Below the pieces are notes generated by a model. It searched no databases. It was not told the DNA's origin and worked only from the letters and a program-made list of their open reading frames with translations. A program made the position numbers and the translations under genes. DNA of 64,000 nt from Chitinophaga pinensis (GTDB taxonomy: Bacteria > Bacteroidota > Bacteroidia > NS11-12g > UBA9320): the NCBI GenBank assembly GCA_945907065.1, contig CAMDSC010000006.1:9111-73110 (forward strand), read 5' to 3'. Shown here one piece after another: positions 1 to 49,135 of this stretch. Position 1 is the stretch's first letter; each line of letters starts with the position of its first letter.

Positions 1-83
1 TGAATAAATGATAAACAATAGGGTAGATTGGTTCAGCCAATGGAAAATCCTTTTGTTTACCGGTAAAGGTAAAAAGGTGTCAC

Positions 84-785
84 TCATTCGTTTGCAAGTG
101 AATCATGTAAAATTGGAACCAGTTCGGATAAATGATGGATTATAAAAGAAGGCAAGTGTATTTGTAACTCCTCTTCACTAAAAGCACCTGTTGTAATACC
201 AATACTGTATTTACATCCTGCATTAAAACCTTCGTTCACATCTACTTCCGTGTCTCCCACTTTTATTACCTTATTAGGATCAATGACTCCAAGATCGTTC
301 ATAATCTTATTAATCATATAAGGATGCGGACGGCCCATGATAACCTCGTCACTGCAAACATATGTATCAATTTTGCCATTTTTTAACCACCCAATTCTGT
401 CAATAATTATATCGGTAATTTCTTTTGAAAATCCAGTGTCTAGACCAATTTTTATGCTTTTAGAATGAAGATATTCAAATAATTCTTCAGCGTATGGCAG
501 TGCTTTAAGTTCCGTGGTGTTTTTATAATATTCAACCATGATGTTTTGAAATCGGCGGTGAATCCTGTTTACATGATTTTCATCAATTAATTCTATATCT
601 TTTTCAAATTCCTCCAATATTTTAAGAATTGCCTCCGGTTTTTTATAACCCATCAGTGGGTTGATCTTTTCAACCGGAACAGTATATCCAAAGTCATGGA
701 ATGCTTTTTGAAAGGATTCAGCGATTTCTCCATTATCCATTACAGTAGTTCCTGCAATGTCAAATACTATTAGTTCTATATTCAT
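84..785 (-). CDS. Phosphonatase-like HAD-superfamily hydrolase (PhnX-like)
   Basis: The N-terminus carries the HAD motif I (FDIAGTTV). The region SFQKAF...PLMGYKK aligns by eye to phosphonoacetaldehyde hydrolase (VILDWAGTTVD...AFRQAF...PMGLGKW), including a Lys at the position of the Schiff-base Lys. C-terminal HAD motifs are present (VGDTEVDVNEGFNAG). Confidence 0.6.
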   Translation of the reverse strand: MNIELIVFDIAGTTVMDNGEIAESFQKAFHDFGYTVPVEKINPLMGYKKPEAILKILEEFEKDIELIDENHVNRIHRRFQNIMVEYYKNTTELKALPYAEELFEYLHSKSIKIGLDTGFSKEITDIIIDRIGWLKNGKIDTYVCSDEVIMGRPHPYMINKIMNDLGVIDPNKVIKVGDTEVDVNEGFNAGCKYSIGITTGAFSEEELQIHLPSFIIHHLSELVPILHDSLANE

Positions 786-791
786 GATTAT

Positions 792-1376
792 TTAGCTTGA
801 TTGATTTTTTGTAAGATGGCTTATCATTAGGTCTTTAAAAATTTTAAGATCACCTATCGCTTTATTGGTTTGTTTTGCCTTTTCATCCCAAATACGGAGT
901 GTAATGTATTGTTCAAACAACTTGTCATTCTCAAATTCAGAGGCTTCTTCCACTGACATTTTACCCCCTTGAAAGACGAGCGTTTTTAAACTTGCTTTCG
1001 ACAATTCTTTTAAATAGGAGGGAAACTTGTATGCGAGATATCTTTTTGCCTCTACATGACTAGCAACCAGTTTCGAAATAGTTTCTGAAAAACCTATACT
1101 TGCCAAATAATTGGCTCCAATACGTTCATGATCGAATACACCAAACCCGTCCATGCTTATTATGCTTTCGTCAGGAAAGGCAAATTCATATAAATGGCCA
1201 ATGTCATGAAAAAAAGCTGCCAAAATTAGCTCCTCATCCGCGTTAGCTTCCATGGCAAGCTCAGCACATTGATACATATGTTCGATTTGGGAAACTGGCT
1301 CACCTATATAATCAGAATCGCCGTACTTTATATATAAGGAGATAATCTCTTCAACTTTGTTTTCTATTGTCATCAT
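792..1376 (-). CDS. HD-domain protein, PhnZ-like (HD metal-dependent oxygenase/phosphohydrolase family found in phosphonate loci)
   Basis: About 190 aa, with an HD motif (FFHDIGHL) and an N-terminal DYIGEPVSQIEHMYQCAELA segment typical of the small HD clade associated with phosphonate catabolism. Its stop overlaps the downstream gene and it sits 6 nt from the HAD gene. Confidence 0.5.
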   Translation of the reverse strand: MMTIENKVEEIISLYIKYGDSDYIGEPVSQIEHMYQCAELAMEANADEELILAAFFHDIGHLYEFAFPDESIISMDGFGVFDHERIGANYLASIGFSETISKLVASHVEAKRYLAYKFPSYLKELSKASLKTLVFQGGKMSVEEASEFENDKLFEQYITLRIWDEKAKQTNKAIGDLKIFKDLMISHLTKNQSS

Positions 1377-3424
1377 TAAAAATTTAATTTTATAGTCAAA
1401 TAAAAATTTCGCCCCATACCATTAATTCCACTTCCATGGGTTCTGTAATCTTTATTAAAAATGTTTTGAATCCCTGGAAAAATGCTCGCTTTTTGGTACC
1501 TGAAACTTCCCGATAAATTAAAAATTTGCCAACCAGGCGTACCTCCAACCGGTATTCTATTATCTTCCTTATCTCCTTGTGCAAGCCTATTCTGATGAAA
1601 AGCAAAAACATATTCTGAATGCAATTGGATTTTTTTATATTGATAACTGACTAAAAATCTTCCATTTAATGGTGGTATTCTTCTTAATGGTTCATTTTTA
1701 GTTAGGTTTTGTCCAAAGCAATAGGAAATATTTCCTGAAAATTTAAAGGATTTATAAAAATAATTGGTAAAAGAAAAGTCTAAACCTTTAAGATAGGATT
1801 CCTGACTGTTTTCTTTTTTGTAAACATTGTAACCCTCAATCTTTTCTCCAACCATTTGTGTCCGGGTGATAAGATCGGAAAGATGCATATAGTAAAAAGA
1901 GATACTAACCAACTCCTTTCTAGTTTGAAGGCGATATCCAACCTCGGTATTAAACGATTTTTCAGGTTTAATTTTATAAGAGGGCACTTCATACCGGAAA
2001 TCTACCAATCCAAGAGTTCCCATATCGTCAATATTGGGTAAACGATATCCTGAACTAAAGGAGGAAAACAGACTTTGCGTTGATGATATTTGAAAGAGAG
2101 CTGCCAAATTAGCAACCATGGATGAAGGATTGATTTGTATTTCCGATGGATTCGAACCTATTTTACCTGTATCGGAAATCAAAAGATTAAATTTATTATA
2201 CCTCAAGCCGGCTTCAATTCTAAATGGGTTCAGTTGAAAATGATGCAGAGTGTACACTGAAAAATTTCCATTCATTGCTAAATCAGGATACAAACCTCTT
2301 TGCAGTAAATGAGTATTTGTCGCTATGCTTATTTGATCTCTAGAACTTCTTACCAAATCATGGTAGAACTCAATTCCTGAATTAGCTAACCAGTTCTTTT
2401 TTAGCTGGGATAAGATATCAATGGTTACTCCATAAGTTAAAATTTGATCCTTTTCAATAAATCGATAATTATTGTTATTTTTAAAATAGCTTCTTGTCTC
2501 ATTATTTTTTTGTGCAGAAACTGTAAAAGTGGTTTTAGTTAATAATTTTCTTTTGCCGGTGTTTTCTAGTCTCGCATAGCTAAGTTGTCGCTTTTGCGGT
2601 TCAAAAAAATAATAATTAAAATTTTCAAGATGAACTTTATGATACAAGGGAACATCTCTTTGTTCAAGATATTGATAAGCTAAAGTTATTATTGAACGAG
2701 AATTTAAAAGGAATTTAAATTTTCCGTTTATGGCATGTTCTTTATAACCCGATGGAGATTGCTTCCCAGTGGTGTCGCCACCATAAAGATCTCCAAACTC
2801 TCGAATAGTGGCACCTATCAAAAAAGCTGTTTTCTTTGTTTGATAAAGCATCTCGGCGTGGCTAGTCCATTCCATTTTTTGCGTAACAGCCTTTAATTGA
2901 ACCTCCGTGTGTAATTTTTTCTTAGCTGAGAAGACAGGTTCTTTAGTAAAGACCTGTATAACCCCTCCAAGTGCATCGGAACCAAATTGAACTGACCCGG
3001 TACCTTTTACGGCTTCAATATGAGATATGGAGTAAACATCAATAGTATTAAAATATTGGTTAGGTCCGTAGCGAAAAATAGAATTATTCATTCTAACCCC
3101 ATCGGTTAAAATGAGTATTTGATTACCTGTTAATCCTCTAATAAAAGGAGAACCTCCGCCATGATTGGTTTTTTGGATAAAGATCCCGCTGCTTCCGGAA
3201 AGTGCATCTGGAGCAGTCCGATATTGGAAATTTTCGATATCTCTTTTATTAAGCGTTACATAGGAATAAGGAATAAATAAAGATTGGGTCTTATTTCTGC
3301 TGGCAGTAACTAAAACTTCCATTAGTTTTATTGTAAAATCAGATGTATCTGCTTGTGAGAAAGCATCTCCATGCAAACCACTGAAAAAAATAACAAGTAA
3401 AAAGATTCGCCATGATTGTAGCAT
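1376..3424 (-). CDS. TonB-dependent outer-membrane receptor
   Basis: Signal peptide, a plug-like N-terminal region, a ~680-aa beta-barrel composition and a C-terminal aromatic residue (…IKLNF). Confidence 0.8.
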   Translation of the reverse strand: MLQSWRIFLLVIFFSGLHGDAFSQADTSDFTIKLMEVLVTASRNKTQSLFIPYSYVTLNKRDIENFQYRTAPDALSGSSGIFIQKTNHGGGSPFIRGLTGNQILILTDGVRMNNSIFRYGPNQYFNTIDVYSISHIEAVKGTGSVQFGSDALGGVIQVFTKEPVFSAKKKLHTEVQLKAVTQKMEWTSHAEMLYQTKKTAFLIGATIREFGDLYGGDTTGKQSPSGYKEHAINGKFKFLLNSRSIITLAYQYLEQRDVPLYHKVHLENFNYYFFEPQKRQLSYARLENTGKRKLLTKTTFTVSAQKNNETRSYFKNNNNYRFIEKDQILTYGVTIDILSQLKKNWLANSGIEFYHDLVRSSRDQISIATNTHLLQRGLYPDLAMNGNFSVYTLHHFQLNPFRIEAGLRYNKFNLLISDTGKIGSNPSEIQINPSSMVANLAALFQISSTQSLFSSFSSGYRLPNIDDMGTLGLVDFRYEVPSYKIKPEKSFNTEVGYRLQTRKELVSISFYYMHLSDLITRTQMVGEKIEGYNVYKKENSQESYLKGLDFSFTNYFYKSFKFSGNISYCFGQNLTKNEPLRRIPPLNGRFLVSYQYKKIQLHSEYVFAFHQNRLAQGDKEDNRIPVGGTPGWQIFNLSGSFRYQKASIFPGIQNIFNKDYRTHGSGINGMGRNFYLTIKLNF

Positions 3425-3430: not shown

Positions 3431-6139
3431 TTAATCTCCCTTGTAATGATTTTGTCTCATAATATCTTCCTGATCCATAGGAGGTCCTTGCATAATTTTA
3501 TGCCAATCTAATTCACGGTTGTATTTTTTCATGGCTTTTTGGGCATCAAAAACCCGAGTGTCATTTGGCTCAAGAGTGAAAGGAATAAAATCAGGTGTTT
3601 CTGTAAAAAAGTCTTGTAAAAGTGTAGCAGTAGCATCGTATTGATTGACATAAGGAATATTTAAAATATTATAAATAGTTTTGAGAATAGAGCCAAAACT
3701 GGCATGTGTATGGCTTACATGTCCTTTTTTTACATATGGACCTGCCATGATTAATATGCTTCTATGCGCATCTATATGATCTACACCTCCTTGAGGATCA
3801 TCTTCCGTAATAATAACTAATGTGTTTTTCCAGTATTTTGTTCTCGATAAAAAATGAAGAATGCGTCCAACAGCCAAATCATTATCGGCAACAAAGGAAT
3901 CTGGAAAATAATATCCATCTTCTGGTCTGGGTCCTGCGGTATGGTCATTTGGCACTTGCATGACAATTAAAGCCGGCATGGTATCTTTTCCTGTCAGCCA
4001 TTTCTCAGTAAATTCATTTTCAAATTGGTTCATTCTGAATTGATCCGGAATGTTGGTATTATAACCCGCGTAATTATGACTGGTTTTATTGAAAAGAGCC
4101 TTTTGCATTGGTACCATAACTCCGTGAGCAGCTCCAGTTGCTGTATCCATGGCCTCTTCCCTCACATGAGCAGTTTCATTGGCTTCACCAAAATTGTAAA
4201 ATGAAATGTTATTTCTTTCTAACGCTTCCCATAATCCGCCAATTTCCGCGTAATCCTCAGGATCCATACTTCCGGTAGAGCCTGGAAACCTTCGGCCGGG
4301 AGCAGATGAAAATAATTTTGCTGTTTTGTCAATACTGGAGTTGGTTTCTACCCATTCATTCGGAATAACTCCAAGCATCCAGTGATGTCCATGGATGGAA
4401 GCATCGCTTTCACAGTAAAAATTGTCGCTGTATGCAAAACTTTTGGCGGCTTTGTGGTGATTGGGTGTCACTTTTAATCCTTGATATTTTATTTTTAAGG
4501 AATCAGGTAGCACGTATTCACAATTGACTCCAAAACGGGCCAAACTGCTATCTCCCTTTCCGTCTTTTAATTGACCAAAAACCTCATCGTAAGTTCTGTT
4601 TTCTTTGGTAATATAAACGATGTGTTTTATAGGGCTGTTTCTCATTCGGGGTAGGAGAGGCAATGGGTTTTTACCATCATCTAAAAGAGTAATGCTTTTA
4701 AAGGTATTGCTCAATGTTTGTGAGGTGTATTTTTTTAATTGCTCATTGGTTGGCATTTTAACTTTTTGGAAACTTCCTAATTGTATATCTCCAATATAAG
4801 TGCCTTGTGGTGGTTTAATAAAGTTTTTTCCTCCATTGGGGCCTGCTCCCAAACCTCTGCATGAAATAATATAAAGTTCATTCTCTGATTTGGATAAAAT
4901 GACCCTGGAGGTACCCCAACCGCTGGGTATTAATCCTTTGGATGTTTTACTTTTAATATCGATAACTGCTAAGGCATTGAATCCTAAAAGGGCCACATAC
5001 AAAGTTTTTTCATCTTGACTTAAAGAAATGCCAAAAGGCAGCAATCCTCTTAATTTATCAATTCGTTGATCTACTCGTATCGGAATATGGGATACAATTC
5101 GATGATTTTTATAATCGATCACAGTTATATTGTCGTTAGTGGCATTGGTAACATAAGCATATTTTTTTCCAACTGCAATGGAATTGGGACTGGAACCGCC
5201 AACTACTTCGGCATTTTCAATCATTTCTCCAATCTGATAACCTGTTTTAAATTTGTCAACTACTTTGTTGGTAACAAGATTAATAGTGTAAACACTCATG
5301 GCTTCAGGTACATTTGGGCTTCCCACTCCAGGGATTTTTCTGCCTTCAATGATGGTTCCATGGATGGACTCCCGAGTATTGTTTCCGTAAGGATGACGAG
5401 AGATTAAGAGTGAATCATAATTTTTTTGATTGGCTCCTTCAATTAGGGGATACGAGTACATGCCCACGTTTGCAACAAAAGCAGTAGTTTTATCAGGACT
5501 CAAAGCTAAACCAAAAGGAAGTCTACCCACAGGAATAGAAGCGGTAATTTTTTTTAGTTTGAGATCATATCTAACCAATCTAAAATTTGCTCGGTCAAGA
5601 ATTAATAATTCATTTTTTGAATCATTCAGCAGTAAATCTGCGGTAAAGCTATCTTCATATTTTATTCCTTCAAACTCACCATTTAAAGAAAAGGTGTCTA
5701 TTTTTTCAAATTTCTCTATGTCGTAAATGATAACTGAACCTTGATCTCCTCCGCTTAAATAAACTGTTTTTGAATCAGGGTGAATGGCGATTCCAAGAAA
5801 AGAACCATGTTGAAGAGGCGATTTTATCTTTCCGTCATAGGATGGAACTCTTACCTGTTTTAGACTTGCAATATCAATAACTGTAAATACCCCATTATGA
5901 AGAGTCACTGCCTTTTTTTCATCAGAAGAAACAGCCATCCCAAAAGGATCATGCGTTATTCGAATAAAATTTCCTGCCGGAGTTAAGAATCTGCCACTAG
6001 CAAGAATTGAAATACCTTTTTCATTTATCCTACAAAAACTGTCTACACCAGGTACCTGCAAAATGGTTACTTTATTTTGGGCAATAGAATTGGAATAGAC
6101 ACTAAATATTAGAAGAGAAATGAGGAATATTTTTTTCAT
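3431..6139 (-). CDS. Secreted fusion protein: N-terminal YVTN/YncE-type beta-propeller and C-terminal phosphoesterase (phospholipase C / acid phosphatase AcpA family)
   Basis: Signal peptide MKKIFLISLLIFSVYSNSIAQ. The N-terminal half has repeated propeller-like blades (GxxxSPDxKxxYV patterns). The C-terminal half contains IKHIVYITKENRTYDEVFG, matching the ENRSFDhyfG signature of the PF04185 phosphoesterases. Confidence 0.6.
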   Translation of the reverse strand: MKKIFLISLLIFSVYSNSIAQNKVTILQVPGVDSFCRINEKGISILASGRFLTPAGNFIRITHDPFGMAVSSDEKKAVTLHNGVFTVIDIASLKQVRVPSYDGKIKSPLQHGSFLGIAIHPDSKTVYLSGGDQGSVIIYDIEKFEKIDTFSLNGEFEGIKYEDSFTADLLLNDSKNELLILDRANFRLVRYDLKLKKITASIPVGRLPFGLALSPDKTTAFVANVGMYSYPLIEGANQKNYDSLLISRHPYGNNTRESIHGTIIEGRKIPGVGSPNVPEAMSVYTINLVTNKVVDKFKTGYQIGEMIENAEVVGGSSPNSIAVGKKYAYVTNATNDNITVIDYKNHRIVSHIPIRVDQRIDKLRGLLPFGISLSQDEKTLYVALLGFNALAVIDIKSKTSKGLIPSGWGTSRVILSKSENELYIISCRGLGAGPNGGKNFIKPPQGTYIGDIQLGSFQKVKMPTNEQLKKYTSQTLSNTFKSITLLDDGKNPLPLLPRMRNSPIKHIVYITKENRTYDEVFGQLKDGKGDSSLARFGVNCEYVLPDSLKIKYQGLKVTPNHHKAAKSFAYSDNFYCESDASIHGHHWMLGVIPNEWVETNSSIDKTAKLFSSAPGRRFPGSTGSMDPEDYAEIGGLWEALERNNISFYNFGEANETAHVREEAMDTATGAAHGVMVPMQKALFNKTSHNYAGYNTNIPDQFRMNQFENEFTEKWLTGKDTMPALIVMQVPNDHTAGPRPEDGYYFPDSFVADNDLAVGRILHFLSRTKYWKNTLVIITEDDPQGGVDHIDAHRSILIMAGPYVKKGHVSHTHASFGSILKTIYNILNIPYVNQYDATATLLQDFFTETPDFIPFTLEPNDTRVFDAQKAMKKYNRELDWHKIMQGPPMDQEDIMRQNHYKGD

Positions 6140-6211: not shown

Positions 6212-7768
6212 TTATTTAATAATCCACATTTTTTCATTGATATCATCACTACCAGAAAACTGCGATATAATTGCTGAATTAACATTGACAGCATTAACTG
6301 ATTTTTCGGAAACAGGGTATTGAAATCTCAAAGGAACTCTTTGACTATTTCCTGTACCAGGTCCAACATGGAAAGTTGGTGTTGTAGTTCTTCTCCAGTT
6401 ATAATAAGCTTCAGATCCGCTATTTTGATAAAATGCTAAATATTTTTGAGTTAAAATTTGGGTTAGACCGGCCGCTGAATTTCCGGCGTATTGAATGACT
6501 GGTTGTGCGTAATAGGTATTCCAATCGTAAGAAATGGTAAAGGTATTATAGTCATTAATGGAGCCATTTTTCTTTTGAAAGGTGACAGTATTGTTGCCAT
6601 TTACCAATCCGTAAAAACCGATACTCGACTGAATTCCTTTTTTATACCAATCCTCGGCATCCCCTGTAGTCCATCCGCGATTTATAGCCTCAGCAATATT
6701 AAAACACATTTCAGGATACCCGATTTGAATGATACTTTCTGCTGTGTAAGTTCTGTAATACCTGTTTCTGTTTATATAAGAGTATAATCCTGCCAATGCT
6801 TTGGTAGTCATAGTAGCCAAATCTTCACCACTGCCAGCCCCGTTAAAAGCTTGGAAACTTGTTGGTGAAGCTCCTGCTCTAACCAACGAATCGGCAGGTT
6901 CAGCGACTACGAAGGTTCTTGGGTCTTTATAGCTAACGAGTGTGTTTAAATAAGTACTTGACATATTGTAACGATTTACGTCAAGACCATAGATATCCGG
7001 ATTTGTAGGATATTTATCAAATGAATTTGGTACATAGGCCATATTATCTGTCATGTCTGAAAAAATAGGGTACTTGGAAGAATTGGACAATGTTTCAGTG
7101 AATTTTTGCTTAATGTTTAAATCGGCATCCCCTTCTTGTTTGCTTAGTTGAATAAGCACTCGCAATTTGAAGGTATTAACAGCCTTGCGCCATTTATTTA
7201 AATTATTAGCATAGTAAAAATCACTTGATAATAAATAGCTGCCGTTACTTGTAATGGTGCTTATTTCATTGTTTGATTCTTCAAGCCATACAAGTATTTG
7301 TTTGAAAACTTCCTTTTGACTATCGTACTTTGGCTTGGTGTTATCAATTCCCTTTAAAGCCTCAGATAATGGAATATCTCCAACTTGCATGGTTACATTA
7401 TAATACAAATAGGCACGGAAAAATTTTCCTAAGGCAGTGTATGCATTTGGAGCAGGAATATTTTTTGTGGCTTCCTCTTCCATTTTAAGCACATTGTTCA
7501 ACCATTTAAATGCATCATACGAAACACCTGTCCAACTATATTCCTGATCACCATAATAATTATAATTGCAGCAATAGAACTGATTCCAGCGTTGGGTTGG
7601 ATTAAATGATTTTTGAGTAAAGTCAACCAAAATTCCATTCAAAACTAAATTAGCCGGAACGCTTGTAGCACGGTTCTGATCCATTTCTAATGAATCAAAC
7701 TCTTTTTTACATCCACTCATTGCAAAGATGAAAGTAGAGGTTAATAGAATTATAAATACGTTTTTCAT
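6212..7768 (-). CDS. susD-like: SusD/RagB-family outer-membrane lipoprotein
   Basis: Lipoprotein signal (…FAMSGCKK), ~520 aa, a Trp/Tyr/Asn-rich alpha-helical composition, and a position immediately downstream (19 nt) of a SusC-type receptor. Confidence 0.7.
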   Translation of the reverse strand: MKNVFIILLTSTFIFAMSGCKKEFDSLEMDQNRATSVPANLVLNGILVDFTQKSFNPTQRWNQFYCCNYNYYGDQEYSWTGVSYDAFKWLNNVLKMEEEATKNIPAPNAYTALGKFFRAYLYYNVTMQVGDIPLSEALKGIDNTKPKYDSQKEVFKQILVWLEESNNEISTITSNGSYLLSSDFYYANNLNKWRKAVNTFKLRVLIQLSKQEGDADLNIKQKFTETLSNSSKYPIFSDMTDNMAYVPNSFDKYPTNPDIYGLDVNRYNMSSTYLNTLVSYKDPRTFVVAEPADSLVRAGASPTSFQAFNGAGSGEDLATMTTKALAGLYSYINRNRYYRTYTAESIIQIGYPEMCFNIAEAINRGWTTGDAEDWYKKGIQSSIGFYGLVNGNNTVTFQKKNGSINDYNTFTISYDWNTYYAQPVIQYAGNSAAGLTQILTQKYLAFYQNSGSEAYYNWRRTTTPTFHVGPGTGNSQRVPLRFQYPVSEKSVNAVNVNSAIISQFSGSDDINEKMWIIK

Positions 7769-7787: not shown

Positions 7788-10700
7788 TTAAAAGGTAAGA
7801 TTTAAATTTATTCCATAGCTCCTCAAAGTAGGAGTTTGAAGGTTTGTACTGCTTTGGTTAGCGAACTGATCCACATCCACATCTTTGAATTTTTTTCCAT
7901 CCTTCAAGAAATAAAGAACATTTCTGGCAACAATAGAAACCGTTGCACCTTGGATAAAACCTTTTTTGGCAATTGAACTTGGTATTTGATAAGTAAGTAC
8001 CACTTCTCTTAATTTTGTATAAGTCTTACTCATCATGTTTGGTTCAGGAATACTGTGAACACGGCTAATATAATCTTGTACATAAGTTTTGGTAGCATTG
8101 TCTGCAAATTGAAGTTCACCATAATTGATAATTTTACCTGTAACTGGATCAAATTTAATGGAAGCACTATTAGATACTTGAACCCCTTCACCTATGTATG
8201 ACTTAATTCCAAGTGCATCCTGATCACGGGAAATGCCGAAATCACCTTCTGTAGTTTCAATGTGTCTTCCTCCTTGGAAGGTTTTTTTCCTTACATAATC
8301 TTCCATTATACCTCCAACACGGCCATCAAATTGAAATCCAAGTGTAAAGCTTTTGTAACCAACCTTATTGTAAACGCTCCATACCCAATCTGGATTTGAA
8401 TGACCAGCCAATTGTGCTACTGGAAGAATAATTGGTCTTCCACCGCCATCATTGATAATTTTACCATCTTCAGTTCTTGCAAATTTTTTAATCCATACTT
8501 CATCTGTTCTGCTGCCAACCTTATAAAAATTGTTTATAGCAGTTAATCCTTCTGGCAATTCCTTGTATGTTTCTTTAAATTTAGACCAGTTAACCATCAC
8601 ATCCCAACTCAATCCTTTACCAACTTTTGATTTTTCAATAATTTTACCAGTAAGGGTTACTTCAAGACCCTTTTTTTCAGTTTTGGTTGCGTTAATAATA
8701 TTATTTGTAAATCCTGAGGCTTGTGAAATTTGTTGTGTAAAAATTTGTGGACCATCGATATATTTAAAGTATGCAAGATCTAGACCTATTCTATTGTTTA
8801 AAAACTTCATATCAATTCCTAATTCTGAATTGGTTCTGTTGTCAGGCTTAATATTTTCGTCTATCAGGTTATTAGAAAAACGAGAAGCAGTAGAATTGTT
8901 ATATCCAATAGAATTGCTGTAAACATCGTTAAATTGATATGAAGGGCCACCATAGGTTGAAGTGTATTGTGAACCATATCCAACAGGGTAAGTATTATTA
9001 GGGGTGACTCCAATTGTATTTGCTACGAATGCCCCTCCACCTCTGCTTTGGGCATAAGAAGCTCTTAACTTCAAAAAGTTTATTACTGAAGGAAGTTTAA
9101 CATAATCTGTAATCACAGTGTTAGCATTTACTGATGGATAAAAGAAGGTGTTGTTATCCTTTTTTAAGGCAGATAATTTATCAACTCTACCAGAGGTATT
9201 CAAGTTTGCATACTTGCCTAATTCAAAATCATAAGAATAGAAAGCACTATTTACTCTCATATCAGAATTGAAGTTATATGCTTTTACAGGATTTCTACTA
9301 TTGGAAAAGCTGTAAACATTTGGAACGTTCAAATAGTCAGTTTTAACAAAGCTTGAAGCATATGAAAACAACCTTATATTTCCACCAATCAAACCGCTTA
9401 CTTTTATAAAATTTGCAATTTTAGGGGCATTCATTCTCAATATTCCATCAGTGTTATTTTCGAATAAGGAGCGTTTGTCCTCAATATAGTCGCCTTGATT
9501 TTCCTCACGTCCATAAGGATGGGCTGAGAATGGCATTTTTTCAGTTCTTGTTAAATCATAAGTTGAAATAGAAGTTCTTCCCATAAAATCAAAATAGTTG
9601 TTGAATTTGTAAGTAAGAGAAGTGTATCCATAGATATCATTTTTATGATGGCCTCTTAACCATTCGTAGCTCATAAAGTATGGATTGTGATACCGCTGAT
9701 ATTCTTCATACTTGCTTTGAACTCCTTCTTTGCCAGGTTGCCAATAATCTTCCATATCGCGGATGTCCCAATCGGCACCTCCCCATATGGTAATGTTGTA
9801 AATTACACTGTTTGGACCATAATTTACATCTGGAATATTATCCGTAAATTGTTTGTTGAAATTAAGATTTGCATCCAACTTAAGTTTTTTAGTCATCTTC
9901 AAGGATGATGATAAATTAAAGTTAATCGTTTTTAAATCCGTATTTGGAATAATGCCCCTTTGATAGTTATTCGAAACCGAGAAACGCAAATCATGCTTTT
10001 CTCCGCTTGAAGATATTGCAATGCTATTATTGGTTAAAATACCGGTTTGGATAAATCGCTCTAAGTTATCTTTACCTCTTGCAGTCCAAGGTGTTGGTGT
10101 TCTTTTTCCAGTAATAGGATCAACAGGACTATCGTATTGTGGTAAAAGGCGTCCATCAAATTTTGGACCCCAAATATCATAATCTCCATCATTAACTCCT
10201 GCTCCTTTTCCGTCTACGAATTCGTATTTTCCATGATCCCCAGGTCCATATAAATCTTGAGTTCTTGGCAAAGCAATAAATCCTTTTTGAAACATTGTGC
10301 TACTGTTATATTCAACTGCAAAACCACGTTTATTTTTGCTTCCTTTTTTTGTATTTATTATAATAGCACCGTTTTGACCGCGGTATCCATACAAAGCTGA
10401 AGCAACAGGGCCTTTTAAAATGGTATAGCTTTCAATATCATCACCATTTATGTTCCAAGTATCAGAATTAATTGGCACACCATCCACTACATATAAATAT
10501 ATGGGATTACCTCTCATAAGTACCTGAGGATTGCCCAATAACTCGGCTGAAGCGCCAACAGTTAATCCGGCAACTTTACCTGTTAATGTGGTAAAGGGGT
10601 TTGGATCTCTGGCTTTAACTAAATCTTCTCCTTGCACTTCCTGTGTGGCATAACTGATATATTTCTTATCTTTTTTAACCCCTAAGGCTGTTATCACCAA

Positions 10701-11033
10701 ATCCTTTAACTCAATTGAATTTGGTTCCATTAAAATTGTTAAAGAAGAACTTTCCACAATTATGGTTTTAGTTTCATAACCAATATTGCTTATAACCAAT
10801 TCAGCACCTTTTGAAGCTGATATTGTAAATTCACCTTTAATGTCAGAAATTGCACCTGTACGGGTGTTTTTTAATACAATAGTAACTCCTTCAATCGGCA
10901 ATTTTGATGTAGCATCATTAATTTTACCATTAATTTGAAGATCTTGGGAAAATAATAAAATTGGTGTTGTAATTAAAAAATTCAAAAATAACAGACCAAT
11001 CCATTTGCGTTTAGTAATACTTTTTAGCATCAT
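7788..11033 (-). CDS. susC-like: SusC/RagA-family TonB-dependent receptor
   Basis: 1081 aa, with an N-terminal carboxypeptidase-regulatory-like domain (INGKINDATSKLPIEGVTIVLKNT), a plug, a large barrel and a terminal …LNLTF. Confidence 0.85.
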   Translation of the reverse strand: MMLKSITKRKWIGLLFLNFLITTPILLFSQDLQINGKINDATSKLPIEGVTIVLKNTRTGAISDIKGEFTISASKGAELVISNIGYETKTIIVESSSLTILMEPNSIELKDLVITALGVKKDKKYISYATQEVQGEDLVKARDPNPFTTLTGKVAGLTVGASAELLGNPQVLMRGNPIYLYVVDGVPINSDTWNINGDDIESYTILKGPVASALYGYRGQNGAIIINTKKGSKNKRGFAVEYNSSTMFQKGFIALPRTQDLYGPGDHGKYEFVDGKGAGVNDGDYDIWGPKFDGRLLPQYDSPVDPITGKRTPTPWTARGKDNLERFIQTGILTNNSIAISSSGEKHDLRFSVSNNYQRGIIPNTDLKTINFNLSSSLKMTKKLKLDANLNFNKQFTDNIPDVNYGPNSVIYNITIWGGADWDIRDMEDYWQPGKEGVQSKYEEYQRYHNPYFMSYEWLRGHHKNDIYGYTSLTYKFNNYFDFMGRTSISTYDLTRTEKMPFSAHPYGREENQGDYIEDKRSLFENNTDGILRMNAPKIANFIKVSGLIGGNIRLFSYASSFVKTDYLNVPNVYSFSNSRNPVKAYNFNSDMRVNSAFYSYDFELGKYANLNTSGRVDKLSALKKDNNTFFYPSVNANTVITDYVKLPSVINFLKLRASYAQSRGGGAFVANTIGVTPNNTYPVGYGSQYTSTYGGPSYQFNDVYSNSIGYNNSTASRFSNNLIDENIKPDNRTNSELGIDMKFLNNRIGLDLAYFKYIDGPQIFTQQISQASGFTNNIINATKTEKKGLEVTLTGKIIEKSKVGKGLSWDVMVNWSKFKETYKELPEGLTAINNFYKVGSRTDEVWIKKFARTEDGKIINDGGGRPIILPVAQLAGHSNPDWVWSVYNKVGYKSFTLGFQFDGRVGGIMEDYVRKKTFQGGRHIETTEGDFGISRDQDALGIKSYIGEGVQVSNSASIKFDPVTGKIINYGELQFADNATKTYVQDYISRVHSIPEPNMMSKTYTKLREVVLTYQIPSSIAKKGFIQGATVSIVARNVLYFLKDGKKFKDVDVDQFANQSSTNLQTPTLRSYGINLNLTF

Positions 11034-11053
11034 TTTTTTTTAATTTGATGCTT

Positions 11054-11061
11054 CAAAAATA
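11054..11061 (-). promoter_or_regulatory. Candidate Bacteroidota -7 promoter element (TAnnTTTG) upstream of the susC-like gene
   Basis: The minus strand reads TATTTTTG about 21 to 28 nt upstream of the SusC ATGATG start, inside a 244-nt AT-rich leader region. Confidence 0.2.
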
Positions 11062-11277
11062 ATTTTGAGTGTATTAAGCGTTCCGTTATTTTAAGTTATT
11101 TTTTAGTGAAAATAACCTTTCTTTAATGTTAATTTGTTTTTTTAAAGATATAATTTCTTAATGATTTAAACATACATAAGTTTTTCAAAACGTTATTTAT
11201 CATTAATTAAGTTATTTGAAAATACTAAGGTTCTCAATTTATGTAAATAAAATTTGATGAATTGGTTTTTATAACTA

Positions 11278-29145: not shown

Positions 29146-30123
29146 TTACAATTTTTGAAACTCAAACTTTGGATATCCTTTAACTCCCAAATCATTATAA
29201 AAATCGAGGAAGTGAAGTTTGTAATAAAACCCATCTGAAACTTTCAAAATATAATTAATCTTTGGGTTTACAATATAAGAGTTGGTGGTAAAATTAAAAG
29301 ATTTCCAGTCATAACCAATTCCATCCCTAATAGTTAAAAAATTATAAGCCGAAATATTATTTGGTGTAATATCTGAATAAGAAGTTTTTGAATCTAACGC
29401 CACTTTTATTCTTTCCGTATTTACCAAAACTCCTAAAAGCTGATAGTTTTGGGTAATCTTGAAGTCATTGGAATACACTAGTTTTACATATTGAGTAAAC
29501 CATAAATCCCACATGTTTTTGGGCGGTTCAATATCAGCAGGTTTATCTTTGATAAAAGAATAGTAATTGAAATTGAATAATTCATTTTTTTTAATAACTC
29601 GTGTTTTGGGCGTGTTTTCATCCAGCTTACACCACGATATTTTAAGGCTTTTATCCGTTTGTAACTCAGGCATACACTTAATAAAACCAATAGGCATTCC
29701 AAAATCATCTGAACCTAAATTTATAATAAAAATTTCAGACGATTTAAGCCACCATTGGCCCATAGCTAAACTATCTAAGTTAAAATCGGGCTGACCCCAC
29801 AAAAATTTCAAACCTACGGTATCTGTAACTTCATTAAAATTAGTTTTTCCGGTGGCTGCTGCATATACACCACGGCCATTATTTAACAAAATAATATGTC
29901 TGTTGGGTTGGCAATCAAATGCAATATCCCAATCCATACGTTTAATGGTTTTAATAATTTTATTGGAATCAAGATTGAAAAAAATATGGTCGGCATAAGT
30001 ATTTCCCATACTTACTGAATTAGTGATAACACTACCACGGTCAAATGGTTTTATTGGTTTTTCTGGGCGTTCGCAACCATATATAAAAGCAATGAGTAAA
30101 AGTAGGTAACCAAATTTTTTCAT
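29146..30123 (-). CDS. HmuY-like lipoprotein (putative haem/ligand-binding partner of the adjacent TonB-dependent receptor)
   Basis: Lipoprotein signal (…FIYGCERP). The motif DWDIAFDCQPNRHIILLN resembles the HmuY NWDMALHRYDVRLN region. It is paralogous to ORF 32467..33672 through shared DWD(I/L)AF and GYDWK(S/T)(F/Y)N motifs. Confidence 0.5.
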   Translation of the reverse strand: MKKFGYLLLLIAFIYGCERPEKPIKPFDRGSVITNSVSMGNTYADHIFFNLDSNKIIKTIKRMDWDIAFDCQPNRHIILLNNGRGVYAAATGKTNFNEVTDTVGLKFLWGQPDFNLDSLAMGQWWLKSSEIFIINLGSDDFGMPIGFIKCMPELQTDKSLKISWCKLDENTPKTRVIKKNELFNFNYYSFIKDKPADIEPPKNMWDLWFTQYVKLVYSNDFKITQNYQLLGVLVNTERIKVALDSKTSYSDITPNNISAYNFLTIRDGIGYDWKSFNFTTNSYIVNPKINYILKVSDGFYYKLHFLDFYNDLGVKGYPKFEFQKL

Positions 30124-32420
30124 TATTTTTTTATAAAGTTATAGTCTAATTTCAGGAAATACAAACGACCCATTCCTAATTGCAAGGAATTACTATTGCC
30201 GCTATGCACACCTCCTGTATTTCCATTGGCGGTTAGCGAAGTTATATTTAAAATATTTTTAACTCCAATTCCAAAAATCCATTTTTGATTAATAAAAGGT
30301 TTTGATAGCGTTAAATCAGCCCAGGTATAACCTGCAATTGTTGATTTTATAGGTTCTCCTAATTCATTGGTAATAAAATTTATCGATTCGCTATTAATCT
30401 TTATAAATAAAGACGTATTAATTCCCGTCTTTTTGTGAAGATAGGAAGTGTTATTTGTAATTTCATAAGAATTGAAAGGGTTTAAAAATCCTTTGGTGGC
30501 GGAAGAAATAACAGTATGTGATATTCCAAAATTCCCTGTAAATGCTTTGAGTTTAAATCCTAAATTACCATTTGTTGTCATGGCTTTAAAAAAATCAAGA
30601 TTACGATAGGTATAGGCTGCATCTTTAATGTTGGCCAATACAATTCTATCGGTAATAGTATTATAAAATAAGGATAACTCAGGCTGAAGCCAGTTGGTTT
30701 TTTTTATAATTTTTTTAACAACTGATAACTGAAAATTGTGAGATTGCTCTGGATTTAAGTTAGGATTTCCTGTAATGTTGTGGTTGACATCTACAAAAAA
30801 CAAGTACAATTCTTTAAGGTCGGGAGCTCTGTATCCTCGAGCATAAGAGGTTCTAAATGTTAAACTTTTTTGAGCAGCCCATTTAATATTCAAACTTGGT
30901 AATGGAATTGTTTTATAAGATGTGTTATCTGAATAACGAATTCCTGGTTTTATTTGCCATTTAATAGTTGGAGAAATTTCCATACTTAAAAAAGTGGCAT
31001 AATCACTTATAGTAATTTCTTCGTTCTTAAGTTTTTTACCAACTCCAGTTTCACGGTTTATGTCATATCCAATTTGATAATTAAATCGTGCATTCATAAG
31101 GGATTTGGTATAAGTTCCTCTTAATACAATGGCTGTAAATTTTGAAGTATCTTGTTCATTGGTTTCAGGAACCAAGTTTTTATCCAATGTAACTCTATTA
31201 AAAAGGTATCTGTTTTTGGTGCGATGATAAACGTTGTAGGCTGCAATAAGATTCAAATATCTATTGTGAGGTAGTTTAGATGTTGCCGTTATTGAATTAT
31301 CAAATCTTCGGGTTTTATAATATTCATCAAAGGCAGTTTCCATATAAGGTAATCGGGGAGTTCCCTTATTTATAAGATTTTCATTAAAAAATTCAGATTT
31401 CATATTTAAATCAAACAATCCAATTTTTCGTAAGTATTGCACTCGTCCAAAGTATTGTTCTTTCGGTTTCCATTCCTGAAATCTTACATAATCTTTGGAT
31501 GACCAACCATCAAAATAATTTCGTCCGGCTGAAATATGATAAACTCCATTGCTTTTTCTCAACCCAATATTTACAGTGTTATTATACCGGCCAACACTTT
31601 CATTATAAGTGGTAGCATTTATAGTTATTTTATTGAGTTGTTTCTTTTTGGTAATAATATTTATAGCTCCAGCCAATGCATTGGTTCCATATGCTACAGA
31701 TAATGGGCCTTCAATTATTTCAATGCGTTCAATATCGTTAAGGTTTATTTGGCTCAGGTCAATATTTCCGTTAACCCTACCTATAATTGGAACTCCGTCG
31801 ATTAAAATTTTTACATTTTGACCGGAAATTCCCATCAAAGTCATGTTACTTCCCAATAAATTATCTTGACCAAGCTTTACATTCAATTGATTGCTCAATA
31901 AATCATTCAGATTATTAGCTGCCATACTTTTTATCTTTCGTTCATCAATTACTATTACTTTGTTAATTGATTTTTCAGGAATTGTTGCTGAATATTGGTC
32001 AGTAATTACCGCTTCGGGCAAATATTTAAGATCTACTTTTAGTTTAATTGTATAATTACCATCCTTGCTGATAGTATCTTTTCTGATTTCAAAACCCAAA
32101 TAAGTTATTAATAAGGCTACCTTACTTCCCTGACTGTATATAGTTATTTCGCCTTGTTCATTCGTAACGGAATGCAAAGTTTGTCCGGTATTTATAACCG
32201 TCCATTTAATAGGGGCATAGGTTAAAAGGCTATTATCTTCTTCATTAATAAGTTTTATTTTTATTTGAGCTATACACGAAAAGCTAAATAAAAAGAAAGC
32301 CAATGCCATTCCTGTTTTTAAAATAGAAAATGGTATCGGCTTAGTTTTAATTGAATTGTTAACCATTAAGGGCTGCAAAAATAGGCCGATGATGATATTT
32401 ATGATTCTGATTTTTGTCAT
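30123..32420 (-). CDS. TonB-dependent receptor (HmuR-like), with an N-terminal carboxypeptidase-regulatory-like domain
   Basis: 765 aa, with a plug region (…DERKIKSMAANNLNDLLS…LMGISGQNVKILIDGVPI…) and an NPNL-like NPNLNPEQS motif typical of TonB-dependent receptor barrels. Confidence 0.8.
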   Translation of the reverse strand: MTKIRIINIIIGLFLQPLMVNNSIKTKPIPFSILKTGMALAFFLFSFSCIAQIKIKLINEEDNSLLTYAPIKWTVINTGQTLHSVTNEQGEITIYSQGSKVALLITYLGFEIRKDTISKDGNYTIKLKVDLKYLPEAVITDQYSATIPEKSINKVIVIDERKIKSMAANNLNDLLSNQLNVKLGQDNLLGSNMTLMGISGQNVKILIDGVPIIGRVNGNIDLSQINLNDIERIEIIEGPLSVAYGTNALAGAINIITKKKQLNKITINATTYNESVGRYNNTVNIGLRKSNGVYHISAGRNYFDGWSSKDYVRFQEWKPKEQYFGRVQYLRKIGLFDLNMKSEFFNENLINKGTPRLPYMETAFDEYYKTRRFDNSITATSKLPHNRYLNLIAAYNVYHRTKNRYLFNRVTLDKNLVPETNEQDTSKFTAIVLRGTYTKSLMNARFNYQIGYDINRETGVGKKLKNEEITISDYATFLSMEISPTIKWQIKPGIRYSDNTSYKTIPLPSLNIKWAAQKSLTFRTSYARGYRAPDLKELYLFFVDVNHNITGNPNLNPEQSHNFQLSVVKKIIKKTNWLQPELSLFYNTITDRIVLANIKDAAYTYRNLDFFKAMTTNGNLGFKLKAFTGNFGISHTVISSATKGFLNPFNSYEITNNTSYLHKKTGINTSLFIKINSESINFITNELGEPIKSTIAGYTWADLTLSKPFINQKWIFGIGVKNILNITSLTANGNTGGVHSGNSNSLQLGMGRLYFLKLDYNFIKK

Positions 32421-45075: not shown

Positions 45076-45083
45076 TATATTTG
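45076..45083 (+). promoter_or_regulatory. Candidate -7 promoter box (TATATTTG, TAnnTTTG consensus) for the alternative complex III operon
   Basis: It sits at the 3' end of a ~450-nt AT-rich leader region and overlaps the TTG that the ORF track used as a start. The first ATG (45111) lies ~28 nt downstream. Confidence 0.3.
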
Positions 45084-45110
45084 CAGCCGAAAAATCAGGT
45101 TTCCCCCTAT

Positions 45111-46070
45111 ATGTTTAAATATCTAAATAGTAGTAGAAATGCAGCAGCATTAATGTCGGTGTTATCCGCATCTACTGCCCTAATGGCACAGCAAACCGCT
45201 GCAGCTCCCGGAGAAAAACCGAGTCTGTTTTATACCGACACTACATTCGTAATCGTATTATTACTTTGTTTATTATTCTTCGTAATCGCCTATTTTCTTT
45301 ATAGGGTAAAAAGTCATTTGGATAAAATGATTGATGAGAATGTGGAAGGTGGTAGAGAATTGTCACGATATGATAAAGTTGTTAAACCATGGTTAAAAAC
45401 ACTTAATCCAACTGTTACTGCACTGCTTTTAGGAACTATTTTTGGATTGTTTGCTTTTGTAAAAGCATACAAATTTGGTGTGACAGAAGTAGGTGTACAA
45501 AAAGGATATTCGCCAACTCAACCAATTAAATTTTCACATACAATGCATGCCGGAAAGTTACAAGTGGATTGTAAATATTGCCATTCAACGGCTGACAAAA
45601 GTAAGCAGGCAAGTATTCCTTCTGCTAATACTTGTATGAATTGTCATAAGTATATTACACTTCGGGATAGGTATAATGGTCAGGTATCCCCTGAAATAAG
45701 TAAAATATATAAAGCTATAGGATGGGATGCGGAAACAAATTCATACATTCCTAATTATAAACAAAAACCGATTGAATGGGTAAGAATTCATAATTTGCCT
45801 GACTTAGCTTACTTTAATCACTCACAACACGTAGTTGTTGGAAAAGTGGAGTGCCAAACTTGTCACGGACCTATTCAGGAAATGGATCAGGTTTATCAGT
45901 TTTCAAGTCTTCAGATGAACTGGTGTATAAACTGTCACAAAGAAAGAAGTGTAGATGTAGCCAATAATAAATATTATGAAGATCTTCATAAGCGCTTGAA
46001 AATTCAAGGCAAAACTGTTTATACGGTAGCTGATAATGGAGGTTTGGAATGTGGTAAATGTCATTATTAA
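45111..46070 (+). CDS. actA: Alternative complex III subunit ActA (pentahaem cytochrome c)
   Basis: Five CxxCH motifs (CKYCH, CMNCH, CQTCH, CINCH, CGKCH), an N-terminal transmembrane helix, and a position as the first gene of an actABCDEF cluster. The track ORF starts at TTG 45081. Confidence 0.75.
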   Translation: MFKYLNSSRNAAALMSVLSASTALMAQQTAAAPGEKPSLFYTDTTFVIVLLLCLLFFVIAYFLYRVKSHLDKMIDENVEGGRELSRYDKVVKPWLKTLNPTVTALLLGTIFGLFAFVKAYKFGVTEVGVQKGYSPTQPIKFSHTMHAGKLQVDCKYCHSTADKSKQASIPSANTCMNCHKYITLRDRYNGQVSPEISKIYKAIGWDAETNSYIPNYKQKPIEWVRIHNLPDLAYFNHSQHVVVGKVECQTCHGPIQEMDQVYQFSSLQMNWCINCHKERSVDVANNKYYEDLHKRLKIQGKTVYTVADNGGLECGKCHY

Positions 46071-46086
46071 TTTTAGATTATACTAA

Positions 46087-49128: not shown

Positions 49129-49135
49129 TATTTAA

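Follow-up and report, generated by a model that had tools for sequence, protein, structure and literature searches.

Enzymes of the PhnZ and PhnX types both stand at the end of phosphonate catabolic routes, where they cleave the C-P bond and release phosphate. The oxidative pathway for 2-aminoethylphosphonate (AEP), in which PhnZ acts with PhnY*, is said to go back to McSorley 2012 and van Staalduinen 2014 (PDB 4MLM). Among gene clusters that encode the oxidase PbfD (family TIGR03364), which functionally replaces PhnW, the most frequent type combines pbfD with phnX and phnZ and lacks phnW (Zangelmi et al. 2023, iScience, PMC10590968, Table S1). The chemistry leading from PbfD to PhnX has been demonstrated, and phnZ was assigned by inference to the degradation of (R)-1-hydroxy-2-aminoethylphosphonate (HAEP) (PMC10590968). 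Operons of Achromobacter similarly contain PhnX, a TIGR03364 oxidase (HpnW) and a TIGR03276 HD protein (PhnHD) without PhnW, and HAEP was proposed as the substrate of the HD protein (Epiktetov et al. 2024, PMC11203657). In Flavobacterium, phosphate utilisation systems known as PusCD clusters have been described, in which a SusC/SusD pair is accompanied not by CAZymes but by phosphoesterases, enzymes of phosphonate degradation and an inner-membrane transporter (Lidbury et al. 2020, ISME J, PMC8115612).

We analysed a stretch of 64,000 nucleotides (the window) from an uncultured Chitinophagaceae-like Bacteroidota bacterium, at the left edge of which an HD-domain protein and a HAD hydrolase are encoded side by side. 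The locus shares features with each of the systems above. As in the pbfD-phnX-phnZ clusters of Mariniblastus fucicola and others, DUF5690 and a TIGR03364 FAD oxidase occur with a HAD of the phosphonatase type and a TIGR03276 HD protein, without phnW or phnY*. However, the gene order is different (the M. fucicola PbfD2 locus runs DUF5690, PbfD2, PhnX, an AraC regulator and HD), and the cassette follows genes for SusC/SusD, for a TonB receptor and for secreted phosphoesterases. In addition, the HAD protein belongs to the TIGR03351 clade (H56A, Y128F, shorter cap) and not to TIGR01422, the model on which the canonical PhnX of M. fucicola scores 334.8 bits. The PhnX of Achromobacter is likewise canonical and retains the His56 that is absent here, and those operons have a PhnSTU ABC transporter and a LysR regulator where the present locus has DUF5690 and SusCD. 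The locus also has the composition that defines PusCD clusters, although it differs from those of Flavobacterium in its host and in its beta-propeller/AcpA-type phosphoesterase fusions.

Organization of the operon

Both genes lie on the minus strand, with the HD protein (194 aa) at 792-1376 and the HAD protein (233 aa) at 84-785, separated by six nucleotides (786-791). The initial annotation had described them as an HD protein of the phosphonate-associated clade and a phosphonatase-like HAD enzyme, and the best NCBIfam models, TIGR03276 and TIGR03351, agree. It had also treated the two as a pair without partners. However, the stop codon of the HAD gene overlaps (ATGA) the start of a further gene that leaves the window at its left edge, so the pair is not the end of the operon. 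Contigs L001 and L007 match the window at 100% identity over its first 10,785 and 11,376 nucleotides, respectively. Beyond the edge these contigs encode DUF5690, a TIGR03364 FAD oxidase (DAO) and a second phosphoesterase, with gene overlaps of 4 and 11 nucleotides. Of the nine genes of the operon, the first six are complete in the window. The orphan pair is an artefact of the window edge, and the partner oxidase lies just past it.

The first gene of the operon encodes a SusC-like TonB-dependent transporter (7788-11033, minus strand; CarbopepD_reg_2 and Plug domains) and is preceded by an intergenic stretch of 244 nucleotides. It is followed on the same strand by a SusD-like outer-membrane lipoprotein (6212-7768; SusD-like_2, E 3.6e-57) and by a secreted fusion protein of 902 aa (3431-6139). 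This fusion has a signal-like sequence at its N-terminus, a YVTN/YncE-type beta-propeller in its N-terminal part and an AcpA/PLC-type phosphoesterase (PF04185) at its C-terminus, and is predicted to free aminophosphonate head groups from esters. The fourth gene, for a 682-aa TonB-dependent outer-membrane receptor (1376-3424; Plug and TonB_dep_Rec_b-barrel domains), has a stop codon that overlaps the HD start codon. The HD and HAD genes come fifth and sixth, followed by DUF5690, of which the window holds the first 29 codons (1-87, minus strand), by PbfD (the TIGR03364 FAD amine oxidase) and by the second beta-propeller/phosphoesterase, which has 798 aa.

When the operon was scanned for sigma-70 promoters and terminators, shuffled sequence yielded as many sites; the consensus used is not applicable to Bacteroidota. 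As a possible Pho box we considered the AATAAC repeats that precede SusC, and dropped the idea. The pattern was set with a 7-nucleotide spacer and matched 3 of 20 related SusC upstream regions, whereas the window repeat has a 6-nucleotide spacer and was itself unmatched, which makes the test invalid.

Search for PhnW and PhnY* partners

The initial annotation had reported that neither PhnW nor PhnY is present. Our search covered the scanned window ORFs and the 8-10 kb flanks of related loci. Of the 49 window ORFs of at least 120 aa, 45 were run against Pfam (those left out are 8530-8922, 46087-49128, 50493-51074 and 58273-61185), and among these 45 there was neither a class-V aminotransferase (PhnW) nor a TauD/PhyH dioxygenase (PhnY*). 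PhnY* was likewise not found among the Pfam-scanned recurrent neighbour families of 80 related metagenomic loci. The HD protein would therefore depend on a pre-formed hydroxyphosphonate, a difference from the PhnY*/PhnZ pathway. A class-III aminotransferase at 56964-58190 was considered as a hidden PhnW and rejected, as it is of the wrong class and 55 kb away. The earlier observation holds for PhnW and PhnY* in the ORFs scanned but not for the partner function, since PbfD, the replacement for PhnW, is encoded just past the edge.

The PhnZ-like HD protein

The HD protein is most similar to the model TIGR03276, named 'phosphonate degradation HD-domain oxygenase', which it matches over positions 3-179 of 179. 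Its 195.7 bits fall short of the curated cut-off, 214.6. Relatives score close to this limit, with P0045 passing at 215.4 and both P0083 (210.6) and the M. fucicola HD protein (203.2) just under. With crystallised PhnZ (PDB 4MLM; E 2.9e-47) the HD protein shares 45% identity. All six diiron ligands, which the initial annotation had proposed to check, are present: H33, H57, D58, H83, H107 and D164 correspond to PhnZ H34, H58, D59, H80, H104 and D161. The substrate and loop residues examined are also kept, with Y23, E26, H61, R161 and E165 corresponding to PhnZ Y24, E27, H62, R158 and E162. The list of six ligands and the residue roles, E27 with the amino group and H62 with the hydroxyl, are taken from a review (PMC7916636). 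In a 38-sequence alignment all of the matched residues apart from E165 are listed as invariant.

Judged by its residues, the protein has all the features expected of a mixed-valent diiron oxygenase acting on an alpha-hydroxylated phosphonate, and we predict that it converts (R)-HAEP to glycine and phosphate. However, E27 occurs in TmpB as well, so that it does not discriminate between substrates. The Y..GEP motif is also common to the HD protein and TmpB. Given this shared motif, N-methylated variants of HAEP may also be substrates.

The PhnX-like HAD hydrolase

The best model for the HAD protein is TIGR03351, 'phosphonatase-like hydrolase', matched over positions 1-219 of 220 with 186.8 bits against a cut-off of 218.9. 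Its relatives in loci L014 and L015 pass this cut-off with 232.6 and 233.4 bits. On the model for true PhnX, TIGR01422, it stays under the cut-off of 220, with 131.5 bits. Models for a BT2127-type pyrophosphatase, a phosphoglycolate phosphatase and a beta-phosphoglucomutase were considered and rejected, since they score at least 100 bits below the phosphonatase models.

The TIGR03351 family is described by a DxAGT motif, a lysine in the cap and an arginine at the position of PhnX Arg160. The HAD protein agrees with this in its DIAGT sequence, K49 and R152, and its gene has a TIGR03364 neighbour 1.3 kb downstream. Synteny of the family with the TIGR03364 oxidase, and not with PhnW, is part of the description as quoted by Zangelmi et al. 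(PMC10590968).

The likeness to the PhnX of the PhnW/PhnX pathway (B. cereus; PDB 1RQL, E 3.7e-22) extends to the HAD fold, the DxAGT motif, the Asp nucleophile, the Schiff-base Lys, Arg160 and the two Asp of the Mg site. The core catalytic residues D9, A11, K49, R152, D178 and D182 correspond to PhnX D12, A14, K53, R160, D186 and D190, and are kept in 51-52 of 52 relatives. K49 is the second lysine of the GYKK segment, which the initial annotation had rightly aligned with the Schiff-base lysine. Further matches are T13/T16, M45/M49, G46/G50, T117/T126 and G118/G127. The agreement with PhnX is nevertheless partial. The cap is shorter than that of canonical PhnX, and His56, Tyr128 and Cys22 are replaced by A52, F119 and E20, respectively. 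The changes of His56 to Ala and Tyr128 to Phe are found in all 52 PhnX-like HADs examined. According to a review (PMC7916636), both residues of PhnX serve to activate water for hydrolysis of the Schiff base, and because the clade invariably lacks His56 and the Tyr128 hydroxyl, it may use a somewhat different aldehyde substrate or mechanism. A single-sequence AlphaFold model of the protein (mean pLDDT 39) was unusable.

By alignment the HAD protein has the Asp nucleophile and the Schiff-base Lys expected for an aldehyde-bearing phosphonate. At the level of single enzymes, earlier suggestions of a hydroxylated substrate and of an aldehyde-bearing one fit the residues of the HD and HAD proteins, respectively.

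The oxidase and the DUF5690 protein

The oxidase beyond the window edge scores 411.9 bits on TIGR03364, above the cut-off of 285.1. It is 39.8% identical over 369 aa to M. fucicola PbfD2, the sequence of which was read from a figure of the paper, and 29.9% identical to PbfD1. PbfD2 oxidises both AEP and N-methyl-AEP to phosphonoacetaldehyde, with kcat/KM values of 3400 and 13500 per M per s (PMC10590968).

The complete DUF5690 gene on L001 and L007 encodes a membrane protein of 434 aa (PF18943, E 1.6e-146), and no match to PF18943 was found at the sequence level in the PDB. An AF2 model of P0241, which is 93% identical to it, has a pLDDT of 85 and an MFS fold, with G6PT1/SLC37A4, sialin and NorA as its best PDB matches. 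G6PT1/SLC37A4 is an organophosphate:phosphate antiporter. We predict that DUF5690 is an inner-membrane aminophosphonate importer. AepP was considered as the identity of this transporter and rejected, since AepP is a GlpT-like MFS protein and the gene here belongs to a different family that shares its fold class.

Related loci

A scan of a genome collection with the HAD protein gave a single locus, L013, where the amino-acid identity is 91% and the gene order the same; its metagenome-assembled genome carries the label Chitinophaga pinensis. The comparison therefore rests on contigs looked up by exact protein match and on a scan of metagenomes. In 29 well-flanked metagenomic loci, which extend 4.5 kb or more to either side of the HD homologue, DUF5690 is always present, PbfD is present in 28 and a PhnX-like HAD in 27, and all three occur jointly in 27. 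SusC is found in 24 of these loci and SusD in 23, and in most of them the cassette lies behind a SusC/SusD pair and phosphoesterases. Relatives of the TonB-dependent receptor directly upstream of the HD gene are less frequent (7/29), as are homologues of the 902-aa fusion (7/29). NPP-like PF01663 proteins, true phospholipase C and GDPD also recur among the neighbours. The L016 counterpart of the locus adjoins PHO4 and PhoU_div genes.

Two kinds of variant bear on the HAD step. Locus L033 lacks the HAD gene and has instead genes for an aldehyde dehydrogenase and for a PF01663 enzyme, as would fit PhnY and PhnA, which marks the HAD slot as the one that consumes phosphonoacetaldehyde. In five loci a PbfG-like Zn-dependent alcohol dehydrogenase lies between two HADs. 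PbfG converts 2-hydroxyethylphosphonate to phosphonoacetaldehyde (PMC13576164).

Proposed function and alternatives

We consider it likely that the HD and HAD proteins form the cytoplasmic core of a phosphorus-scavenging operon with two parallel branches of C-P cleavage. SusCD, the TonB receptor and the secreted phosphoesterases would capture and cleave phosphonate esters, probably the head groups of phosphonolipids or phosphonoglycans. The free aminophosphonates would then enter through DUF5690, a role suggested by its fold and strict co-occurrence. In the first cytoplasmic branch PbfD, by analogy with the 40%-identical PbfD2, would oxidatively deaminate AEP and N-methyl-AEP to phosphonoacetaldehyde. 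The HAD protein would form a Schiff base with this product through Lys49 and transfer the phosphoryl group to Asp9, yielding acetaldehyde and phosphate, as its residues and the genes that replace it in variant loci suggest. In the second branch, running in parallel, the HD protein would cleave imported, ready-made (R)-HAEP to glycine and phosphate, in keeping with its identity to PhnZ and the full match of the active site. With (R)-HAEP taken up ready-made, the hydroxylase PhnY* would not be needed. Expression of the operon may respond to phosphate depletion, for which the PHO4 and PhoU_div genes beside the L016 locus are an indirect sign.

A different use of the oxidase was proposed in the TIGR03364 description quoted in PMC10590968, where the enzyme makes hydroxy-phosphonoacetaldehyde from HAEP and the HAD protein converts this to glycolaldehyde and phosphate. 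In favour of this, the PhnX-like clade has an altered active site and a shorter cap. However, both characterised PbfD enzymes turn AEP and N-methyl-AEP into plain phosphonoacetaldehyde, the M. fucicola version of the cassette has a canonical PhnX, and HAEP is already covered by the PhnZ gene of the operon. Moreover, the PhnY- and PhnA-like enzymes in the place of the HAD in L033 have phosphonoacetaldehyde and phosphonoacetate as substrates, and the PbfG-like dehydrogenases, which make phosphonoacetaldehyde, adjoin PhnX-like HADs. We regard this route as unlikely.

It is a little harder still to credit that the HD protein acts on another alpha-hydroxyphosphonate (N-methylated HAEP, hydroxymethylphosphonate or 1,2-dihydroxyethylphosphonate), or that the HAD protein is an ordinary phosphatase. 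PhnZ-type enzymes have some substrate tolerance (PMC10574752), Y..GEP occurs in TmpB as well, and both proteins fall under their curated family cut-offs. However, PhnZ is the better match for the HD protein, at 164 bits compared with 105 for TmpB, and on the NCBIfam models for TmpB and PhnZ1 it reaches only 130 and 108 against cut-offs of 300. The HAD protein has DxAGT and not the phosphatase motif DxDxT, together with the cap Lys and the Arg at the Arg160 position, and reaches just 41 bits on the BT2127-type pyrophosphatase model.

That the two proteins act consecutively, in the new two-step route for an unidentified phosphonate without an amine-oxidising partner that was first suggested for them, is highly improbable: the narrow gap, the adjacency of HAD and HD in 56 of 62 related loci and the absence of PhnW and PhnY* from the window ORFs scanned agree with it, but both families break the C-P bond and release phosphate, so that neither product would be a phosphonate substrate for the other and parallel branches are indicated, PbfD and DUF5690 follow within the operon in overlapping genes, and independent branches fit both the regulator gene between HD and PhnX in M. 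fucicola and the divergent orientation of the HD gene in 16 related loci.

Conclusions

The proposed phosphorus-scavenging operon with two parallel branches belongs to a published cluster type, and in this respect the finding is largely ordinary and its residual novelty modest. The statement that the pairing has no assigned chemistry does not stand for pbfD, phnX and phnZ (PMC10590968, PMC11203657), but it does describe TIGR03351, for which no direct assay of any 'PhnX-like' enzyme was found in the literature searched. We tentatively suggest, at somewhat short of even confidence, that TIGR03351 represents a mechanistically distinct second lineage of C-P hydrolases, that DUF5690 is a new family of MFS aminophosphonate importers, and that both belong, with SusCD, a TonB receptor and esterases of the beta-propeller/PLC type, to a locus dedicated to the use of phosphonolipid head groups, which would be widespread among Chitinophagales, Cytophagales and other Bacteroidota of soil and fresh water.

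The aminophosphonate cassette of PbfD and PhnZ in Bacteroidota uses the PhnX-like clade, is nearly always tied to the uncharacterised MFS-fold protein DUF5690, and usually lies behind SusCD-type outer-membrane uptake and genes for a phosphodiesterase, PLC or GDPD. The clade offers a natural H56A/Y128F variant of phosphonatase for mechanistic work, and these genes are candidates for the means by which abundant Bacteroidota of soil and fresh water might draw phosphorus from phosphonolipids.

The gene pair and its operon

Two minus-strand ORFs at the left end of the window, separated by 6 nt, encode a 194-aa HD-domain protein (792-1376) and a 233-aa HAD hydrolase (84-785). The best NCBIfam model for the HD protein is TIGR03276, 'phosphonate degradation HD-domain oxygenase' (195.7 bits, below the curated cut-off of 214.6); scores on the models for TmpB and PhnZ1 are 130 and 108 bits, both well under their cut-offs of 300. 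The HAD protein is best matched by TIGR03351, 'phosphonatase-like hydrolase' (186.8 bits, below the cut-off of 218.9), and scores 131.5 bits on the true PhnX model, TIGR01422. These assignments support the initial annotation, which described an HD protein of the phosphonate-associated clade lying 6 nt from a phosphonatase-like HAD enzyme.

Upstream of the HD gene, with gaps of -1 to 72 nt, are genes for a haem/siderophore-type TonB-dependent receptor (1376-3424, minus), which might import phosphonate or iron and whose stop overlaps the HD start (TAATG), a secreted 902-aa beta-propeller/phosphoesterase fusion (3431-6139, minus; PF04185), SusD, and SusC. AATAAC repeats about 10 nt apart occur in the 244-nt region upstream of SusC (11034-11277). 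On the other side, the HAD stop overlaps (ATGA) an ORF that leaves the window at its left edge. Exact-protein look-ups in metagenomes yielded two longer contigs, L001 and L007, to which the window DNA is 100% identical over 10,785 and 11,376 nt, respectively. On both, the HAD gene is followed by genes for a 434-aa DUF5690 protein (PF18943, E 1.6e-146; start only at window 1-87, minus; full gene L001:10699-12003), a 376-aa FAD oxidoreductase overlapping the DUF5690 gene by 11 nt, and a second, paralogous beta-propeller/phosphoesterase fusion (L001:13165-15561; PF04185), beyond which lie convergent MoxR and DUF58 genes. Each of these secreted fusions joins a YVTN/YncE-type beta-propeller at the N-terminus to an AcpA/PLC-type (PF04185) phosphoesterase at the C-terminus; the latter contains an ENRTYD motif. 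Given the tightly spaced upstream genes and the three further genes, the unit is a nine-gene operon, cut by the window edge after the sixth gene.

At 411.9 bits on TIGR03364 (cut-off 285.1), the FAD oxidoreductase falls in the family named PbfD by Zangelmi et al. 2023 (PMC10590968); its identity is 39.8% to PbfD2 and 29.9% to PbfD1. Mariniblastus fucicola PbfD2 acts on 2-aminoethylphosphonate (AEP) and N-methyl-AEP, oxidising both to phosphonoacetaldehyde and thereby 'surrogating' PhnW, and the commonest cluster type of its subgroup combines pbfD, phnX and phnZ without phnW (PMC10590968). The initial annotation had also stated that the pair lacks any usual partner. Pfam scans of 45 of the 49 window ORFs of at least 120 aa indeed revealed neither a class-V aminotransferase (PhnW) nor a TauD/PhyH dioxygenase (PhnY*); however, PbfD lies just past the window edge, and the 'orphan' status of the pair is a product of the cut. 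The sole aminotransferase found in the window is class-III, 55 kb away, and is not a PhnW.

Nor is this a pairing without assigned chemistry, as had been proposed, since the locus belongs to a cluster type already described. The M. fucicola PbfD2 locus reads DUF5690, PbfD2, PhnX, AraC regulator, HD, and thus has the same four families. Its HD protein is likewise TIGR03276-like (203 bits), whereas its HAD protein is a canonical PhnX (TIGR01422, 334.8 bits) rather than a PhnX-like TIGR03351 member. Similarly, Achromobacter operons carry PhnX, HpnW (TIGR03364) and PhnHD (TIGR03276) without PhnW, and 1-hydroxy-2-aminoethylphosphonate (HAEP) has been proposed as their HD substrate (PMC11203657).

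Active sites

The HD protein shares 45% identity with the crystallised PhnZ of PDB 4MLM (E 2.9e-47), and the six diiron ligands are all conserved in it (H33, H57, D58, H83, H107 and D164). Among the substrate-handling residues, Y23, E26 and H61 correspond to PhnZ Tyr24, Glu27 (which binds the amino group) and His62 (the residue that binds the hydroxyl); R161 and E165 of the same set are also kept (PMC7916636). With the exception of E165, the residues checked are invariant across a 38-sequence alignment. The Y..GEP motif is shared with TmpB, so Glu26 by itself is not enough to define the substrate. By score, the protein is far nearer PhnZ (164 bits) than TmpB (105 bits), and its substrate is probably (R)-HAEP.

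The HAD protein aligns to Bacillus cereus PhnX (E 3.7e-22) and retains the Asp nucleophile (D9), the DxAGT motif, both Mg-site Asp residues, and PhnX Met49, Gly50, Thr126, Gly127 and Arg160. The GYKK lysine previously aligned with the phosphonatase Schiff-base Lys is confirmed as K49, the second K of that segment. Relative to PhnX, His56 is replaced by Ala, Tyr128 by Phe and Cys22 by Glu, and the cap is shorter. In 52 full-length HAD relatives adjoining HD genes (from loci L013-L097), Lys53 is always kept and both H56A and Y128F are invariant (52/52 each); in this clade the Cys22 position is variable and the cap shorter. In canonical PhnX, Schiff-base hydrolysis is said to use water activated by His56 and Tyr128 (PMC7916636). 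The two invariant substitutions are the main ground for a minority alternative in which the substrate is another aldehyde, such as hydroxy-phosphonoacetaldehyde, the route of the original TIGRFAM proposal (PMC10590968). We found no assay of a TIGR03351-clade enzyme in the literature searched; we infer that the clade consists of phosphonoacetaldehyde hydrolases.

Related loci

A metagenome scan with the HD alignment identified 80 loci. Where at least 4.5 kb flanks HD on each side (n=29), DUF5690 is present in 29 loci, PbfD in 28, the PhnX-like HAD in 27, all three jointly in 27, SusC in 24 and SusD in 23. Of 62 loci, 40 place HAD immediately downstream of HD, and 16 place it upstream in divergent orientation. 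Among the neighbour families scanned, none that recurs is PhnW-like or PhnY*-like. Recurrent neighbours include an NPP-like PF01663 protein (29 loci), an HTH-cupin regulator (17 loci), bona fide phospholipase C (7 loci) and GDPD; the NPP-like proteins, phospholipase C or GDPD hold the position of the fusions. Three Bacteroidota genomes or MAGs, whose HD proteins are 58% identical to that of the window, carry SusC, SusD and a PF04185 or PF01663 phosphoesterase followed by HD, HAD, DUF5690 and the PbfD-family oxidase (DAO); in one of the three, PHO4 and PhoU_div genes adjoin the locus.

Two variants bear on the role of the HAD enzyme. Locus L033 (5287-12989) lacks HAD and has HD, a 414-aa PF01663 enzyme, an aldehyde dehydrogenase, a divergent DAO and DUF5690. 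The dehydrogenase and PF01663 enzyme are consistent with PhnY and PhnA, and the locus resembles the cassette in a PbfD/PhnY/PhnA form. This exchange argues that the HAD slot is the phosphonoacetaldehyde-consuming one. In five other loci, two different HAD genes flank a PF00107 Zn-dependent dehydrogenase gene downstream of HD (for example L039:8555-11065; also L042, L056 and L069). The dehydrogenase matches PbfG, a recently characterised 2-hydroxyethylphosphonate dehydrogenase producing phosphonoacetaldehyde (PMC13576164), which suggests an extra branch for 2-hydroxyethylphosphonate, served by a second phosphonatase-like enzyme of its own.

Proposed function

The best-supported model is two parallel cytoplasmic branches. 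In one, PbfD would convert AEP and N-methyl-AEP to phosphonoacetaldehyde, which the PhnX-like HAD would hydrolyse. In the other, the HD oxygenase would cleave (R)-HAEP imported ready-made, an uptake suggested for phnZ of such clusters by Zangelmi et al. (PMC10590968). The chemistry of PbfD2, PhnZ, PhnX and PbfG has been shown for homologues. The two-step route through HD and HAD put forward initially is not borne out, because PhnZ-type and PhnX-type enzymes alike free phosphate by breaking the C-P bond (PMC10574752, PMC7916636) and so cannot act successively.

Aminophosphonates plausibly enter through DUF5690, a family on which the literature searched holds almost nothing. The AlphaFold (AF2) model of a 93%-identical homologue (pLDDT 85, pTM 0.82) has an MFS fold, with G6PT1/SLC37A4, sialin and NorA as top PDB matches (TM-scores 0.59-0.66). 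G6PT1/SLC37A4 is an organophosphate:phosphate antiporter. DUF5690 also accompanies the HD/HAD/PbfD cassette in the planctomycete M. fucicola. Its fold and its co-occurrence with the cassette make it a candidate for a new family of aminophosphonate importers, separate from AepP.

The SusCD pair, TonB receptor and secreted phosphoesterases match the Flavobacterium 'phosphate utilisation systems', in which Pi-induction of PusCD clusters has been shown for homologues (PMC8115612); the present operon is predicted to be Pi-regulated as well. Its esterases would release aminophosphonate head groups from phosphonolipids or phosphonoglycans. A Maribacter proteome includes proteins from a comparable neighbourhood of SusCD, alkaline phosphatase, FAD oxidoreductase and phosphonatase-like hydrolase.

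Host and significance

The host is an uncultured Chitinophagaceae-like bacterium. The nearest genome record, L013 (CAMDGU010000002.1; 83% DNA identity), is a MAG labelled Chitinophaga pinensis. This label looks doubtful, since window GC is about 34%, that of C. pinensis is much higher, and the closest named DUF5690 homologues belong to Ferruginibacter and Sediminibacterium. Elsewhere the window carries HmuY paired with a TonB receptor, as is typical for haem uptake (29146-32420, minus), a cluster of multihaem cytochrome c, NrfD and cytochrome c that resembles alternative complex III (45081-53030, plus) and a fused formiminotransferase-cyclodeaminase (61272-62963, plus).

The interest that remains in the locus is modest, and lies in the PhnX-like clade, the DUF5690 protein and the SusCD context.
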